A DNA stretch of 64,000 nucleotides from Flavipsychrobacter sp. (GTDB lineage Bacteria; Bacteroidota; Bacteroidia; Chitinophagales; Chitinophagaceae): assembly GCA_016786615.1 (NCBI GenBank), contig JAEUVX010000014.1:167334-231333 (forward strand), given 5' to 3'. The notes below the pieces were generated by a model. The model was given only the letters and a program-made list of their open reading frames with translations, was not told where the DNA came from and did no database searches. Made by a program: the position numbers and the translations under genes. The stretch's first letter is position 1; each line of letters begins with the position of its first letter. Below, piece after piece: positions 31,977 to 38,290 of the stretch.

Positions 31977-33263
31977 CTACCAGCGGTCTTGCTTTGGCTT
32001 CGGTTTGTTGTTGTTATTATTATTCTTGTTGAAGCGCTTCTTGTTAGGTGTATTGTTCTGAATAGCATTCGGACGTTTTACCACGTCTTTATTCTTAGGC
32101 AGATTAATTTTCACAACATTTGAAGTGCTGGCAGGAAACGGATGGTTTTCTATAACAGGTATCTGCTTGCCTATCAGTTTCTGAATAGCTTTCAAATCAT
32201 CTTTTTCTTCATCATCGCAGAAAGAGAATGCTATACCTGCTGCGCCTGCACGGCCTGTACGTCCTATACGGTGTACATAGGTTTCAGGCACTTCAGGCAA
32301 GTCGTAGTTGATGACGTGCGATAGTGAATCTATATCTATACCACGTGCTGCTATATCTGTAGCCAGCAGTACTTTTATTTCACCTGTTTTAAAATTGTTC
32401 AGTGCGCGTTGTCTGGCGTTCTGCGATTTATTGCCGTGTATAGCCTCTGCATGTATGCCGTCTTTATACAGCTCTTTCACAACTTTGTCTGCACCATGTT
32501 TGGTGCGGGTAAAGACCAATACCCTGTCAATGTTCTTATCGTTCTTTATGATGAATGAAAGCAACTTACGCTTATCCTTCTTGTCAACATACAGTATATA
32601 CTGGTCTATCTTTTCTGCTGTGCTCGATACAGGGGTAACTTCTACTTTTTGCGGATTTACCAATATTGTATTTGCCAGCTTCTGTATTTCAGGCGGCATG
32701 GTAGCAGAGAAGAAAAGCGTCTGGCGTTTTGCAGGTAGCTTTGCCACTGTTTTCTTTACATCGTGTATAAAACCCATGTCCAGCATACGGTCGGCCTCGT
32801 CCAGTACAAATATCTTAATGTTACTGAGGCTGATGTATTTCTGTTCCATCAAATCGAGCAACCTGCCCGGTGTTGCTATTAATATATCAACACCCGCATG
32901 CAGTGCTTTTACCTGCGCGCCTTGCGGTACACCACCAAATATTACCAGATGCTTCAGGCGCAGGTGTTTGCCATAAGCTGCAAAGCTTTCACCTATCTGT
33001 ATCGCCAGTTCGCGGGTAGGTGTCAGTATCAGTGTTTTGATGACTTTGTGGCTGTTGTCAATAGGAGGTTCACTCATTAACTGCAGTATCGGCAATGCGA
33101 AAGCAGCCGTCTTACCCGTACCTGTTTGCGCGCAGCCAAGCAGGTCATTCTTTTGCAATACTATTGGTATCGATTGTTCTTGTATAGGAGTGGGATGGGT
33201 ATAACCCTCATGCTCTAATGCGTCCAGTATGGGCGCTATCAGATGTAATTCTTTAAATGTCAT
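31977..33263 (-). CDS. DEAD-box RNA helicase (RhlE-like)
   Basis: [21 protein letters not shown] and HRIGRTGR motifs; basic/Asn-rich tail. Confidence 0.95.
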
Positions 33264-33366: not shown

Positions 33367-34587
33367 TTAGCTCGGTTTTCGCTTAAACTTATCATAGCGT
33401 TTCTTATTTCTGTTTCCACCCGGTTTTCGGAAATCTGTTTTGAATTCCGGTGTCGGGCCAAACTCAGCAGGTACAGGTAGTTTCTCTACAGGGTGCCCCA
33501 GTAACTGTTCTATTCTGTGAAATTTAAACTGTTCCTTGTCATTAATGAAAGTATAAGCGCAGCCTGTTGATGCTGCACGGGCCGTACGCCCTATACGGTG
33601 GATGTAGTCCTCACCTTCGTGCGGCACATCATAGTTTATTACCAGCTCTATATCTTCAATATCTATACCGCGGCTTAGTATATCCGTTGCTACCAGTATC
33701 TTCAGTTTCTTACTCCGGAAATCTATTAATACCTGTTCGCGCTGCTCCTGTTCCAGGTCAGAGTGTATTTCATCAGCGGGTAGTTTTTGTTTTTTCAGGT
33801 CTTTGGTCAGTTGTTTTACGCTTTGTTTACTGCTGCAAAAAATCAATACACTGTTGTATTCTTTCTCTTTCAGTATGTGTTTTACAAGCGGTATTTTTTG
33901 TTCGTCATGTACAAGGAAGGCTCCCTGTTTCATCTTATCTGGCGGGCGGGATATGGCTATGTTTACTTCTATAGGTTCTTTCAGTATCGTGTTTGCCAGC
34001 TTGCGTATGGCAGGTGGCATGGTTGCAGAGAACATCAGGTTCTGTCTTTCCTTCGGCATGTGAGAAATGATTTTTACGATGTCCTCGTAGAAACCCATAT
34101 CCAACATACGGTCGGCCTCGTCCAGTACCAGATATTTCACTGCACTCATCTTCACATACCCCATATTCAGGTGCGATATCATACGCCCCGGTGTACAAAC
34201 AACTACATCCACACCATGCGATAATGCTTTTTTCTCAATAGCAAAAGAATCACCGCTTCCGCCGCCATATACCGCTATGCAACTGATGGGTGTGTAGTAA
34301 GAAACGCCTTCCAGTATCTGTACTATCTGCACTGCCAGTTCGCGCGTAGGTACAATTATCATCGAGTTTACCTGATTATCGTCTTTGGTATGCCACAGGA
34401 TATTCTGTATCAGCGGCAGCAGGAATGCAGCAGTTTTACCTGTTCCGGTCTGTGCCGCTGCAATAATGTCTTTGCCATCAAGTATATGTGGTATCACCTG
34501 TGCCTGCACAGGGGTAGCTGTAGTATATCCCATCGACTCAATGCCATCCATCAAATCATCATCAAACCCGAAATCCGTAAAGTTCAA
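33367..34587 (-). CDS. DEAD-box RNA helicase
   Basis: [21 protein letters not shown] and HRIGRTAR motifs. Probable TTG start at 34587 (MNFTDFGF). Confidence 0.93.
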   Translation of the reverse strand: MNFTDFGFDDDLMDGIESMGYTTATPVQAQVIPHILDGKDIIAAAQTGTGKTAAFLLPLIQNILWHTKDDNQVNSMIIVPTRELAVQIVQILEGVSYYTPISCIAVYGGGSGDSFAIEKKALSHGVDVVVCTPGRMISHLNMGYVKMSAVKYLVLDEADRMLDMGFYEDIVKIISHMPKERQNLMFSATMPPAIRKLANTILKEPIEVNIAISRPPDKMKQGAFLVHDEQKIPLVKHILKEKEYNSVLIFCSSKQSVKQLTKDLKKQKLPADEIHSDLEQEQREQVLIDFRSKKLKILVATDILSRGIDIEDIELVINYDVPHEGEDYIHRIGRTARAASTGCAYTFINDKEQFKFHRIEQLLGHPVEKLPVPAEFGPTPEFKTDFRKPGGNRNKKRYDKFKRKPS

Positions 34588-34655
34588 AATATATGCTTTT
34601 GTTTCAATTCTTGTAAAGATAAGGCAGAACGGGCTTATAACAGGTTTTAATACAA

Positions 34656-34683
34656 ATGCCCCGGTATAATAATACCGGGGCAT
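34656..34683 (-). terminator. Terminator closing the GyrI-like + small ORF transcript
   Basis: Perfect 12-bp stem ATGCCCCGGTAT-(4 nt)-ATACCGGGGCAT, followed by TTGTATT on the minus strand. Confidence 0.75.
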
Positions 34684-34708
34684 AAACAAACGGGTTTATA
34701 GTTACAAG

Positions 34709-34819
34709 TTATCTGTGCAGCTTACAGATGCCGCCAATGCTGTAATTGATGGTGCAAAACAGCCACCCGAAACAGCCCCGGCATATCATGCGGATGGTTT
34801 TACAGCACATAGTTTTCAT
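34709..34819 (-). CDS. Cys-rich 36-aa micropeptide not in the ORF track (MKTMCCKTIRMICRGCFGWLFCTINYSIGGICKLHR)
   Basis: Hand-translated ATG 34819 to TAA 34709. It starts 12 nt after the GyrI-like stop and ends before a terminator. Confidence 0.5.
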   Translation of the reverse strand: MKTMCCKTIRMICRGCFGWLFCTINYSIGGICKLHR

Positions 34820-34831
34820 AAGTAGTATCTT

Positions 34832-35287
34832 TTATTGTACCCCTATCTGCACTTCGGTTACATTATTAGCAGGTTGTTCCATATCTACTACTGTATATAC
34901 TTCCCTGCATTCCTGTGTCATATTCAATCCGTTGGTACGCAGCTCGGCTATAATGCGTCCGTATGTTTCATACAGATTATCCCATGAGCCTTTGTGGGTG
35001 GTTGATATGTATTTGAAGTCGGGTGTTTCGCTGATGCTGAAGCCATCAGTACTGCCAACAGGCATTCCGCTTATAGGCAATCCCATTTCAAGTGTAAAGA
35101 TTGTTTCCTTGTTGCCATCGGCACCCATATAGCGCCATATTTGCCCGCCGGCAGGAATCAGTCCCGCCTTGCCTGCTATTTCATACAAACGCTTCGGTGT
35201 ATTGCCCGAGTCTTTTTGAATGTTATGCAAAGATGTCCGGATAGTAGCTGACAGTACTTTTACTGGTGCTTGTGTTTTGATTTCCAT
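34832..35287 (-). CDS. GyrI-like small-molecule-binding domain protein
   Basis: 151 aa; FTLEMGLPI, HKGSWDNLYETY and CREVY match the GyrI/AraC effector-binding pattern. Confidence 0.75.
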   Translation of the reverse strand: MEIKTQAPVKVLSATIRTSLHNIQKDSGNTPKRLYEIAGKAGLIPAGGQIWRYMGADGNKETIFTLEMGLPISGMPVGSTDGFSISETPDFKYISTTHKGSWDNLYETYGRIIAELRTNGLNMTQECREVYTVVDMEQPANNVTEVQIGVQ

Positions 35288-35295
35288 AATTATGA

Positions 35296-35347
35296 TTGTT
35301 TATGGTGCAAAGCAACGATGGGGTAGTGACAGCCTTATGTCAGCAGC
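35296..35347 (-). promoter_or_regulatory. Promoter/operator copy A (TGACA-N6-TGTCA, putative WYL regulator site)
   Basis: Minus strand GCTGC-TGACA-TAAGGC-TGTCA-CTACCC-CATC-GTTGCTTTGCA-C-CATAAACAA; 46/52 identical to 36351-36402. Confidence 0.8.
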
Positions 35348-35359
35348 TGTAAATAATTT

Positions 35360-36304
35360 TTAAGAATAATGCTTGCTTAGTTCTTTTATCCAGTTCTTCA
35401 TCATGTCTTTGATGCTTTTCGGGTATAGGATTGTGGCATTGCTTTTGAATGTCAGCAGCCAGCTACAGAGGTATTCCGGGTAGGCCACCATAAATTTCAT
35501 CTCCGTTACATCTTTCTTTTTTTCCTCGCTTACAAACCCATAGTATAGCCGTTGTTCTTTTATATAACGTATCACACTGTTGTCAAAAGCAATGCAAACT
35601 TCTGTCATATTGTGTTTCGAACGGAAGTCTTTCAGGTATTCTTCCAGTGTAGGTGTGGCTATAGTAAATAATGTATCAGTCCTGTGCAGTTGCTGTATTC
35701 TGTCGAGCCTGAAGTTGCGATAGCCATTGCGCAGGTGGCACCACGCCACCAGGTGCCAGTAGTTGTTTACATAATAGATACCTACAGGTTCTATCAGTCG
35801 TTCATTTACTTCTTCCGAATGATTGGTATAGTAAACAATACGCACTGCTTTCTTCTGGCTGATGCTTTGCAATATATCTATGATATGGTTGCCTGTACCT
35901 GCCGGTGGGTTGGTATTGCGTTTGAAAACCTGTATAGCTCCTTCAATATCTTCCAGCATACCTTTTTCTGTGCTGCGCAATACTGCTTTTATTTTATAGA
36001 GTGCGGCCTTGTATTGCTCTGCAGTGGCTTTGTCGGTCATTTTATCAATGAACTTTTCTGCCGTTACAAAAGTGATAGCCTCTTCTTTGGTAAACATCAC
36101 TGGAGGTAGTCTATAGCCATCCATAATGCTATAGCCAACACCTGCCTCGCCTATAATAGGTACGCCTGCTTCTTCCAGCGAACCAACATCTCTGTACACC
36201 GTACGCAGGCTGATGCCGAAGCGGTCGGCTATTTCCTGGGCTTTTACTACTTTCTTTGATTGTAGCTGAATGAGTATGGCTGTTATCCTGTCGAGGCGGT
36301 TCAT
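35360..36304 (-). CDS. YafY-family HTH-WYL-WCX transcriptional regulator
   Basis: MNRLDRITAILIQLQ..ISLRTVYRD HTH, GEAGVGY, WYL domain YWHLVAWC..RNFRLDRI, C-terminal WCX-like domain. Confidence 0.93.
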   Translation of the reverse strand: MNRLDRITAILIQLQSKKVVKAQEIADRFGISLRTVYRDVGSLEEAGVPIIGEAGVGYSIMDGYRLPPVMFTKEEAITFVTAEKFIDKMTDKATAEQYKAALYKIKAVLRSTEKGMLEDIEGAIQVFKRNTNPPAGTGNHIIDILQSISQKKAVRIVYYTNHSEEVNERLIEPVGIYYVNNYWHLVAWCHLRNGYRNFRLDRIQQLHRTDTLFTIATPTLEEYLKDFRSKHNMTEVCIAFDNSVIRYIKEQRLYYGFVSEEKKKDVTEMKFMVAYPEYLCSWLLTFKSNATILYPKSIKDMMKNWIKELSKHYS

Positions 36305-36350
36305 GATGACGTAAAGATAGCCTGAAAAATATTTTTAAAAATTTCTGAAA

Positions 36351-36402
36351 GCTGTTGACATAGGGCTGTCACTACCCGGTTGTTGCTTTGCATCATAAAC
36401 AA
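36351..36402 (+). promoter_or_regulatory. Promoter/operator copy B (TGACA-N6-TGTCA)
   Basis: GCTGT-TGACA-TAGGGC-TGTCA-CTACCC-GGTT-GTTGCTTTGCA-T-CATAAACAA. Confidence 0.8.
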
Positions 36403-36414
36403 ATACAAGTAACT

Positions 36415-36924
36415 ATGACACAAATTCAATCGCTGCTGAAAGAAATGGAACACGAAGCGGCAACTACAAAGAAATTTCTATCACTTGTGCCTGCAGACAA
36501 GTTTGATTACAAACCACATCCTAAGAGTATGCCAATGAAAGAACTGGCAACGCATATTGCAGAAATACCTGCATGGATAAAAATGGTATTGACAACGGAA
36601 GGGCTTGACTTTGCTGCAACGCCTTATGTACCTACGCCGGTTAGTTCTACAACAGATTTGCTGGCACTGCAGGAAAAAAGCTTCGATGAAGGCTACGAAC
36701 AGCTATCTAAAGCTACTGAGGCCGATTTTGAACGTATATGGACTATGCGTCAGGGAGATGTTGTTTTCAGCGAGCTGCCTGTTGGCGAAAATATACGCCA
36801 TTGTTTTTGCCAGATAGTTCACCACCGTGCACAATTGGGTGTTTACCTGCGCCTGCTGAATATACCGATACCCGGTAGCTACGGACCAAGTGCTGATGAA
36901 ATGGGCGAATACAAACCTGAATAA
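36415..36924 (+). CDS. DinB/YfiT family protein
   Basis: KPHPKSM..LATHIAE and IVHHRAQLGVYLR..PGSYGPSADE motifs. ATG 36415. Confidence 0.88.
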   Translation: MTQIQSLLKEMEHEAATTKKFLSLVPADKFDYKPHPKSMPMKELATHIAEIPAWIKMVLTTEGLDFAATPYVPTPVSSTTDLLALQEKSFDEGYEQLSKATEADFERIWTMRQGDVVFSELPVGENIRHCFCQIVHHRAQLGVYLRLLNIPIPGSYGPSADEMGEYKPE

Positions 36925-36964: not shown

Positions 36965-38290
36965 TTATTTTGCTATTGCAATTTTTACTTTCTGATTCTT
37001 AATCTTTTTGTCCTTAATAAGGTGCAGCGCATGGCTGGCCTTTATTTTTTTGATGGATACAAAAGAGAAGAAATCTTTTACTTCTATCAGGCCTATGTCT
37101 TCTTTCTTTAGTTCTGCCTGTTGAGAAAGGAAGCCTACAATATCTATTTTATTAACCTTGTCTTTCTTGCCCGCTGCTATAAACAATGCGGTCCATTTTG
37201 GTTTTTCTGGCAGGTGGTTCCCTTCCTGTATTTCCATTTCAGTTATCGTATCTGCATCCAGGTATTTTGGCAACGTTTCTTCCTGCGATAATATCAGCAC
37301 CGCAGTACCGCTCGCATCCATACGTGCAGTACGTCCGTTGCGGTGGGTAAAAATGTCTTCTGTATGTGGTAGGTGATAATGTACTATATAACGAATGTTT
37401 GGAATGTCCAGTCCGCGTGATGCAATATCTGTTGTTACTAAAAAGTCTACAGCACCGCTACGGAATTTGAATAGCGCACTATCCCTGTCCTTTTGTTCCA
37501 TCGCACCATGATAAAATTCATTCACCACTCCTTGCTCTGTAAGCCAGTTGCTGGTACGTTCTACAGACTCTCTGTGGTTGCAGAATATAATTGCAGAACG
37601 GTTTCCTATCTGGCATATCAGTTCCAGCAGTGTTCCCAGTTTGTCTTTATCCTCAGAGTGTAAAGTCTTTACCTCTAATCCCAAAGACTCTGTAAGCTTC
37701 TCTGTAATATAGTTGAGCCTTACAGGGTTTTCCAGTTGCAGAAAATCAGGTATTTCAACTGCTTCAGTTGCAGAGGTGAGTATGCGCTTATTAACGTTTG
37801 GCAGAGACTCTATGATAAACGATACTTCTTCCAGAAAACCAAGCTCCAAAGATTTATCAAATTCATCCAGCACTATCGTAGTAATTGTATCAGTCGTGAT
37901 GCTCTCTCTGCGTATATGGTCGCACAGCCTGCCGGGTGTGCCTATCAATACTGCAGGCGGTTCTATCAGGTTGTTTTCTTCAATCTCACGTTTGTGCCCG
38001 CCGTAGCAACAGGTTGTTTTAAAACCTGTGCCCATACTTTTAAATACCAGTTCTATCTGCTGTGCCAGTTCGCGCGATGGTACAACGATAATAGCCTGTG
38101 TACTCTTGCTGTTTTTATCCAGTTGTGCTACAATCGGCATCAGGAATGCAATGGTCTTACCGCTACCGGTGGCAGAAAGCAGTACCATATCGTTATCTTT
38201 TTGTCCGGCATCCATGGCTGCAAGCTGCATTTCATTCAGCTTGTCAATCTTCATGTTGGACAATATTGTATCTACAGAGAAATTTTGCAT
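36965..38290 (-). CDS. DEAD/DEAH-box RNA helicase with C-terminal DbpA-type RNA-binding domain
   Basis: SATGSGKT, PSRELA, DEFD, SAT, HRNGRTAR; C-terminal GKKDKVNKIDIVG..IGLIEV. Confidence 0.9.
   Translation of the reverse strand: MQNFSVDTILSNMKIDKLNEMQLAAMDAGQKDNDMVLLSATGSGKTIAFLMPIVAQLDKNSKSTQAIIVVPSRELAQQIELVFKSMGTGFKTTCCYGGHKREIEENNLIEPPAVLIGTPGRLCDHIRRESITTDTITTIVLDEFDKSLELGFLEEVSFIIESLPNVNKRILTSATEAVEIPDFLQLENPVRLNYITEKLTESLGLEVKTLHSEDKDKLGTLLELICQIGNRSAIIFCNHRESVERTSNWLTEQGVVNEFYHGAMEQKDRDSALFKFRSGAVDFLVTTDIASRGLDIPNIRYIVHYHLPHTEDIFTHRNGRTARMDASGTAVLILSQEETLPKYLDADTITEMEIQEGNHLPEKPKWTALFIAAGKKDKVNKIDIVGFLSQQAELKKEDIGLIEVKDFFSFVSIKKIKASHALHLIKDKKIKNQKVKIAIAK

Follow-up and report, generated by a model that had tools for sequence, protein, structure and literature searches.

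A 36-codon open reading frame behind a GyrI-like gene of Flavipsychrobacter sp. is likely a small-protein gene of a narrowly distributed Chitinophagales family

Activators of the WYL type are known to control a small damage-response effector in other bacteria: DdaA of Acinetobacter drives AciT, and DriD of Caulobacter, with the small gene for DidA, is a related characterised regulator (PMC13010146). In addition, SiwR, a WYL activator of Mycobacterium smegmatis, drives adjacent DinB/YfiT-like genes under genotoxic stress (PMC10693628). Here, we analyzed a locus with similarities to both, present on a stretch of 64,000 nucleotides from Flavipsychrobacter sp. (Chitinophagaceae; assembly GCA_016786615.1, contig JAEUVX010000014.1, positions 167,334 to 231,333), hereafter called the window. 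A preliminary description, made from the letters of this DNA, had drawn attention to an unannotated open reading frame (ORF) of 36 codons that follows a gene encoding a GyrI-like protein. The ORF is on the minus strand, close to the genes for an HTH-WYL-WCX regulator and a divergent DinB-family protein. Based on comparison with related loci (labelled L001 to L022), we conclude that this small ORF is likely a genuine protein-coding gene, which forms the distal cistron of the GyrI-like unit and whose protein product is under selection.

The locus resembles the SiwR regulon in that a WYL regulator is located beside, and apparently controls, a gene of the DinB superfamily. It differs in phylum and in promoter type, and PMC10693628 contains no mention of GyrI, SbmC or small ORFs. 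Like the genes for DidA and AciT (PMC13010146), the small ORF is located behind a palindromic operator beside an HTH-WYL-WCX regulator gene, i.e., behind a promoter with a candidate site to which the WYL regulator is predicted to bind, and the regulons of DriD and DdaA as well as the regulon of the peptide hold damage or xenobiotic-response genes. The operators resemble each other in layout, with TGACA-N6-TGTCA here and CGAC-N7-GTCG for DriD. AciT has been described as membrane-anchored, whereas the peptide studied here is marginally hydrophobic with a conserved Arg/Lys in its mid-segment, and the peptide gene is co-cistronic with the GyrI-like gene, whereas DidA and AciT stand alone. The likeness is one of gene context, with no evident homology.

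An open frame of 36 codons is by itself unremarkable; the remarkable part is its retention behind an orthologous GyrI-like gene. Related loci were gathered in three ways. With the GyrI-like protein as query, six Chitinophagales loci (annotated as Flavipsychrobacter, Chitinophagaceae IBVUCB1, UBA1935 and UBA4414) were found among species-representative genomes, a scan of metagenomes with the most conserved stretch of the peptide itself gave L008 to L010, and L011 to L021 are contigs carrying GyrI-like homologues of 42-98% identity. The three metagenome loci found with the peptide stretch are all located directly 3' of a GyrI-like gene. Conversely, every locus with a GyrI-like identity of at least about 54% (L001-L005, L008-L019 and L022) contains an ORF of 32-36 codons after the GyrI stop. 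No homologous ORF was found behind the GyrI-like genes of L006 and L020, which have identities of 47-48%. Altogether, a homologous ORF of 27-36 codons is present behind an orthologous GyrI-like gene in at least 9 distinct lineages of environmental Chitinophagales.

Next to these loci, a profile built from nine peptides was compared with 1.84 billion representative proteins, which resulted in one true match of 36 amino acids (MEAYYGKLLRMICKGSLGWICISIKKSMNGVHRYRK, E 2.3e-10). The corresponding gene (L022) starts 12 nt past a GyrI-like gene. Because this match too sits behind a GyrI-like gene, the linkage to this group of GyrI-like orthologues is absolute within the loci sampled. The window peptide has no family match in Pfam, NCBIfam or PADLOC, a profile search of PDB gave nothing meaningful, and an exact look-up of eight peptide variants, three of them with an alternative start or first residue, returned none among about 15 billion predicted proteins. 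The ORF had been described as missed by the ORF list, being below its length cutoff, and gene callers almost never call it. By these comparisons, the peptides make up a new, narrowly distributed small-protein family.

Many of the loci gathered first are closely related, their nucleotide identity across the entire locus being 75-91%. Because raw conservation proves little among such loci, we examined the pattern of change. The sense frame contains no stop codon in any of the seven tabulated homologues, and the other five frames all have stops in one or more of them; the sense frames of L022 and L008 are likewise open. Insertions and deletions upstream of the C-terminal codons are confined to the spacer that separates the small ORF from the GyrI-like gene, with spacer lengths of 2, 7, 8, 11, 12 and 22 nt. 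Consequently, the small ORF is in frame relation 0, 1 or 2 to the GyrI-like gene, depending on the locus, while keeping an ATG or GTG of its own.

The substitutions follow the period of a coding sequence. The differences at the first, second and third codon positions are 4, 3 and 15 between the window and L001, 3, 5 and 18 between L016 and L018, and 14, 8 and 25 between L017 and L022. Taking these three contrasts as non-overlapping, without a tree, the third position holds 58 of 95 differences (21, 16 and 58 per position; binomial P = 3e-8). The two closest pairs have ratios of nonsynonymous to synonymous proportions (pN/pS, Nei-Gojobori) of 0.13 and 0.11, their synonymous sites being close to saturated, and within the two clades the ratio ranges from 0.11 to 0.31. 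The bias towards synonymous substitution that had been proposed as a check is thus present. The only polymorphism among metagenomes with the same species, G to A at position 34739, is also synonymous (AGC to AGT, Ser27). Moreover, the peptide and the GyrI-like protein diverge at a similar rate, their identities moving in step (79 and 80%, 61 and 55%, 47 and 55%, and 50 and 54%, respectively). On the strength of these substitution patterns, we consider it very likely that the frame is translated and that the protein is under selection.

The same data bear on the alternative that the small ORF is not translated at all, in which case RNA structure of a 3' untranslated region, or a DNA element, would account for the conservation and the frame would be open by coincidence. 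Such an explanation would suit the near absence of gene calls. In addition, the conservation between stop codon and terminator equals or exceeds that of the small ORF itself, local hairpins around the stop codon can be formed in several lineages, and an Rfam scan gave matches that overlap the terminator, which were all sub-threshold (VrrA, 31 bits versus a gathering score of 50). However, these weak matches stem from the terminator hairpin and fall far short of the threshold, and neither a substitution period of three nor a pN/pS near 0.1 can be produced by RNA structure. Also, of the six possible frames, a single one stays open throughout the seven tabulated homologues, and RNAalifold analysis detected compensatory changes in the terminator and none inside the ORF. 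We therefore regard an untranslated ORF as very improbable.

Two other candidates that overlap the ORF were rejected. A long-range stem proposed by RNAalifold (ATATGCCG with CGGnATAT) is broken in two of the eight sequences without compensation. An antisense ORF of 36 amino acids (34715-34825, plus strand) reaches 57-61% identity over 23-30 residues, compared to 71-84% for the sense peptide, and is interrupted by stop codons in relatives.

The window, L011-L014, L016 and L022 share a spacer of 12 nt, which places the small ORF in frame with the GyrI-like gene behind a single TAA. This raises the possibility that the conserved codons are a C-terminal extension of the GyrI-like protein, made by read-through of the TAA stop. 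In the L001 group, L005, L008, L018, L017, L003 and L021, however, spacer indels of 1 to 10 nt put the ORF in a different frame, and it is nevertheless intact with a start codon of its own. Besides, structure prediction with AlphaFold2 gives the appended segment no fold. Because its frame relation to the GyrI-like gene varies, we exclude the ORF as a read-through extension, leaving that explanation with a next to negligible probability. The 12-nt spacer, a single TAA plus four codons found in four lineages, may be the ancestral state.

The start codon of the small ORF is the ATG at 34819, and its TAA stop occupies positions 34711-34709 on the minus strand. A second in-frame ATG (Met4, 34810..34808) is the sole start codon position in common with L003 and L015. 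The coordinates of the ORF and of the surrounding features, together with the homologous peptides, are given in Table 1. The distances in the preliminary description are correct: the ORF, which is on the minus strand, begins 12 nt past the stop of the GyrI-like gene and ends 25 nt ahead of a 12-bp terminator stem.

Table 1. Features of the small-ORF locus in the window and homologous peptides in related loci
Feature	Position	Strand	Details
Small ORF	34709..34819	minus	36 codons + TAA; translation MKTMCCKTIRMICRGCFGWLFCTINYSIGGICKLHR
Spacer, GyrI-like stop to small-ORF start	34820..34831	minus	12 nt; 2-22 nt in relatives
GyrI-like small-molecule-binding domain protein	34832..35287	minus	151 aa; PF06445, E 2.5e-9; proximal cistron
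Operator/promoter arm upstream of the GyrI-like gene	35287..35368	minus	one arm of an 82-nt inverted duplication
HTH-WYL-WCX regulator	35360..36304	minus	HTH_11 3.5e-16, WYL 4.8e-21, WCX 5.2e-5
Second operator/promoter copy, facing the DinB-family gene	36330..36411	plus	
DinB/YfiT-like family protein	36388..36924	plus	PF05163, E 1e-11; divergent from the WYL gene
Conserved non-coding motif	34684..34702	minus	ACTATAA(A/G)CCCGTTT(TT)GTTT; between stop codon and terminator
Intrinsic-terminator-like hairpin	34656..34683	minus	12 pairs, 7 G-C, then TTGTATT
Conserved GTTCTGCCTTATCTTTAC box past the terminator	34613..34630	minus	in the window, L016, L017, L018, L022
DEAD-box helicase	33367..34587	minus	406 aa
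L001-group homologue			MKTMRCKTIRMICRGSFCWLFCTISYCIGGIYRR
L005 homologue			variant with GTG start
L003/L015 homologue			MCRRTILMICRGCLSWLLHLANGLLKGISKPY
L016 homologue			METYYNKLLCMICRGSFGWISITITKSMNGIHKHCK
L017 homologue			MKTYNCKVLRMICRGCFGWLFIAAWGSINGVHKLYK
L018/L019 homologue			METFYCKLLCMICKGSFGWITITITKSINGLHKHHK
L021 homologue (GyrI 42%)			shortened, diverged: MNTCRTLLLITKGTFKGACNMLCLFFS

The GyrI-like gene and the DinB-family gene are preceded by two copies of an 82-nt operator/promoter element that are 82% complementary to each other. The copy on the GyrI side contains the palindrome TGACA-N6-TGTCA (TGACATAAGGCTGTCA) at 35327-35342, which is followed by a TTGCTTTG box. The -7 box of Bacteroidota promoters is TAnnTTTG, and the TTGCTTTG box resembles it. 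The element is near-invariant across L001, L016, L018 and the DinB-side copy, including relatives with a GyrI-like identity of only 54-55%, and this duplicated sequence is probably the binding site of the WYL regulator. The small ORF had been placed inside a putative WYL-controlled transcript. In line with this, the operator/promoter element of the GyrI-like unit also precedes the divergent DinB gene beside the WYL regulator gene, no terminator separates the GyrI-like gene from the small ORF, and the conserved hairpin comes after the latter. Contigs from soil metatranscriptomes are continuous from the 3' end of the GyrI-like gene through the small ORF, at a depth of 2-5. From these data we infer, on good grounds, that the small ORF is co-transcribed with the GyrI-like gene and is under WYL control. 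Its translation may also be coupled to that of the GyrI-like gene through the short spacer.

A segment of 16 nt within the small ORF (34746-34761; TGTTTTGCACCATCAA on the minus strand, codons 20-25) matches the region of the -7 box and start of the GyrI promoter (35299-35314; TGCTTTGCACCATAAA) at 14 of 16 positions. The match is present in close relatives only and is probably due to chance.

The two-gene unit would thus be ordered as promoter/operator, GyrI-like gene, 12-nt spacer, small ORF as the second and last cistron, and intrinsic terminator. Most likely, the peptide is made together with the GyrI-like and DinB-family proteins when the WYL regulator is active, and by analogy with SiwR, DriD and DdaA, the trigger would be genotoxic or xenobiotic stress. 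GyrI-like proteins are binders of small molecules and drugs, and the nearest solved structures to the one encoded here are those of AraC effector-binding-domain proteins (9rtm and 9rtl) and of CTR107 (5kax). As a tentative guess at function, the peptide might be a stress-induced small effector that acts through contacts with proteins or the membrane, either as an accessory of GyrI-like/DinB detoxification or as an effector of the WYL regulon comparable to DidA and AciT. A more specific proposal, which we regard as unlikely, is that the peptide is the Bacteroidota counterpart of DidA and AciT: a WYL regulator sensing single-stranded DNA would switch it on together with the GyrI-like and DinB-family proteins, and the peptide would, under genotoxic or xenobiotic stress, either stop a cellular process, for example division or the activity of gyrase, or direct the GyrI-like protein to its target. 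If true, the locus would be compact and self-contained as a WYL stress regulon and would include a micro-effector not described before, in a phylum with no known damage checkpoint.

Several observations weigh against the view that the small ORF encodes a selected protein working with its neighbours. The case for translation is one of sequence comparison, and the family is narrow, being confined to one Chitinophagales clade of about 9-10 lineages, so that few independent contrasts stand behind the statistics. L003 and L015 have lost the first ATG and are strongly diverged in the C-terminal half, and L021 has a shortened peptide. Because pairing is possible between the 3' end of the ORF and the conserved motif downstream of it, some of the constraint in that part may be at the RNA level. 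The metatranscriptome contigs are of low depth, and one of them also crosses the terminator, with DNA carry-over being possible. With regard to membrane contacts, the maximum Kyte-Doolittle mean over 19 residues is 1.07-1.73 across the members, which is marginal for a membrane span. With regard to contacts with the GyrI-like protein, AlphaFold2 modelling of the read-through fusion of GyrI-like protein and peptide gave predicted local distance difference test (pLDDT) values of about 90 for the GyrI-like part and below 50 for the peptide, and thus no support for docking. This fusion is the natural in-frame product with a linker of five residues, and its alignment of 17 sequences contained L016 and L022 as paired rows, which makes it a weak docking test. 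Finally, an exchange of the GyrI-like gene between L001 and L004 argues mildly against tight co-adaptation of the GyrI-like protein and the peptide.

This exchange became apparent from the identity between L001 and L004, which is 92-100% across the locus but falls to 57-78% over the greater part of the GyrI-like coding region (L001:3001-3420; the window equivalent of the gene is 34832-35287). The identity recovers in the last ~35 nt of the GyrI-like gene. Because promoter and small ORF are unchanged between the two loci, the GyrI-like gene was swapped for a divergent allele. More generally, GyrI-like alleles have been exchanged by recombination, with type A being present in the window, L001, L002, L008 and L003, and type B in L004, L005, L009 and L010. 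The presence of two alleles may point to diversifying selection acting on a protein that binds a ligand.

The preliminary description had stressed that the peptide contains six cysteines. The positions given for them in the window peptide (5, 6, 13, 16, 22 and 32) are correct, as is its cationic character, with a computed net charge of +6. The six-cysteine pattern, however, is a feature of the window's lineage only. The number of cysteines varies from 2 to 7 per member, and Cys13 alone is near-constant, being common to nine of ten homologues; L021 has Thr13. Cys6 is present in the window, the L001 group (including L008), L005, L017 and L018. What is conserved are Met1 and Thr3, a core that reads K/R7-x-[IL]9-x-M11-I12-C13-[RK]14-G15-x-[FL]17-x-W19-[LI]20, and a C-terminal part, [ILM]28-x-G30-[ILV]31-x-[KR]33. 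The peptides are all strongly basic, with net charges of +3 to +7. Judged from this comparison, cysteine richness varies in the family as a matter of composition and is not a conserved feature, and the six-cysteine account, with its emphasis on thiol chemistry, is to be corrected in favour of a basic core, MIC[RK]G-x-F-x-W.

These results affect the functions suggested at first, namely a thiol or metal sink, a redox sensor, or a disulfide-rich, membrane-active peptide. Cysteine and histidine account for 8-19% of the residues in the members of 32-36 amino acids, which is well above typical proteins, and CxxC motifs are present as C13-R-G-C16 in the window, L003 and L017 and as C10-M-I-C13 in L016 and L018. 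The DinB/YfiT family includes thiol transferases, which also counts in favour of cysteine chemistry. Moreover, WYL regulons react to oxidative and genotoxic stress (PMC10693628). On the other hand, only Cys13 is conserved, L022 has two cysteines and no CxxC, and the L001 group lacks a CxxC as well. Structured metal sites and disulfide knots normally hold their ligand positions fixed, but three to four or more invariant Cys/His ligand positions, as in metallothionein-like or zinc-ribbon proteins, were not found here, the positions shifting between lineages. The absence of a signal peptide implies a cytoplasmic location, which argues against disulfides. These suggestions, which rested on six cysteines, are thus weakened by homologues that have as few as two, and a function based on cysteine chemistry is rather unlikely.

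No enzyme of the type that modifies ribosomally synthesized and post-translationally modified peptides (RiPPs), such as radical SAM, YcaO or lanthionine synthetase, was detected among the ORFs of at least 150 amino acids in the region of about 24.5-42.3 kb of the window, in agreement with the preliminary description. These ORFs encode housekeeping proteins, helicases, the DinB-family protein and the WYL regulator, and the synteny of the relatives is likewise without RiPP enzymes. A RiPP precursor, e.g., one of the SCIFF six-cysteine peptides, is not supported, since these ORFs include no modifying enzyme and the core cysteine pattern is not conserved.

AlphaFold2 modelling of the peptide with an alignment of nine sequences predicted a single helix of residues 3-35 with a pLDDT of 76, an outcome often obtained by default with short peptides. 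No transmembrane segment appears consistently among the members: the apolar stretch is interrupted by the conserved Arg/Lys14, and in L016, L018 and L022 also by Lys26. The proteins TisB, DinQ and SidA have a similar size (about 30 amino acids) and are damage-induced, as the peptide would be. They are clearly hydrophobic and span the membrane, whereas the peptide has the marginal hydropathy maxima given above together with internal Lys/Arg, and its gene is, unlike theirs, co-cistronic with a protein gene. Type I toxins are under the control of an antisense RNA; none was found here in a scan for sigma-70-type consensus promoters, which is inapplicable to the promoters of Bacteroidota. The peptide also resembles the unannotated small proteins of up to 50 amino acids that are encoded by distal cistrons of stress operons. 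Like these, the peptide is short (27-36 amino acids), unannotated, encoded behind a short spacer, under purifying selection and taxonomically narrow. It differs from known small proteins in that its relatives in Pfam, NCBIfam, PADLOC, PDB and the 1.84 billion representatives amount to one member of its own family.

The terminator downstream of the small ORF is conserved in structure: in relatives, 98.6% of the cells of the stem alignment are paired, and three pairs are changed on both sides. Downstream of the terminator lies a DEAD-box helicase gene, and the preliminary description had considered that the small ORF is a leader peptide. In such a case, translation of the ORF, possibly with arrest, would act in cis on the terminator 25 nt downstream and modulate read-through into the helicase gene. 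The same-strand helicase gene is indeed located directly downstream in the window, L011, L016-L019 and L022, and a contig spanning the terminator was mentioned above. The conserved motif just ahead of the terminator also contains CCCGTTT, for which codons 28-30 of the ORF are a possible pairing partner; this candidate helix is paired in 90% of the cells and appears in several minimum free energy folds. It contains, however, no pairs changed on both sides, and we consider it a lead only. TnaC and SpeFL, two known leader or arrest peptides, are similar to the peptide in being encoded by 24-36 codons, in being conserved along their length and in preceding a termination signal.

The downstream gene is, unlike in those systems, not conserved. 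A convergent gene with a Por_Secre_tail domain lies between terminator and helicase gene in L001-L005, L008 and L015, and yet the ORF is intact in these loci. In L021, another gene is located downstream of the small ORF. The downstream sequence of L009 and L010 is the same as in the group with the Por_Secre_tail gene. In addition, the conserved GTTCTGCCTTATCTTTAC box past the terminator is likely the helicase's own promoter, with a -7 sequence resembling TAnnTTTG, and the helicase gene of L001 is preceded by a perfect TACCTTTG box. Amino-acid conservation peaks at residues 7-20, far from the C-terminus where arrest peptides act. Taken together, these observations disfavour a leader peptide, which we consider quite improbable, and leave a selected protein product as the preferred explanation of the small ORF.

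The small ORF adds a well-supported unannotated small-protein family to the Chitinophagales, and it illustrates that a reader without tools can spot real genes below the annotation cutoff. The damage and xenobiotic responses of Bacteroidota are poorly known, and a compact WYL regulon consisting of genes for a DinB-like protein, a GyrI-like protein and a small peptide, with an operator that can be read from the sequence, offers an entry point to WYL control in this phylum. Given the narrow distribution of the family, the general impact is modest.

Some further features of the region were noted. A second copy of TATAAGCCCGTT is present past the terminator at about 34632-34643, so that a direct repeat, TATAA(A/G)CCCGTT, flanks the hairpin; its upstream copy surpasses the small ORF in conservation. 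A short hairpin enclosing the stop codon of the small ORF can be formed in the L001 group, L016, L017 and L018, and a change between AAGC/GCTT and AGGC/GCCT among the lineages looks compensatory. The Por_Secre_tail gene encodes a protein of 331-340 amino acids that would be sorted by the type IX secretion system (L001:3644-4639, also in L003 and L015); it is present in one clade, is missing from the window's lineage, and constitutes an insertion/deletion polymorphism at the terminator.

As to the helicase gene downstream of the small ORF, its true start is likely the TTG at 34587 and not the TTG at 34689 given by a mechanical list of ORFs. The N-terminus predicted from the former, MNF.DFGFDDDLMDGI (MNFTDFGFDDDLMDGI...), aligns with the ATG starts of the relatives, and a start at 34689 would span the terminator. 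Within 6.5 kb, there are three paralogous DEAD-box helicase genes (31977-33263, 33367-34587 and 36965-38290), all on the minus strand. They bracket the module of WYL, GyrI-like and DinB-family genes, and this arrangement is syntenic in L011 and L016.

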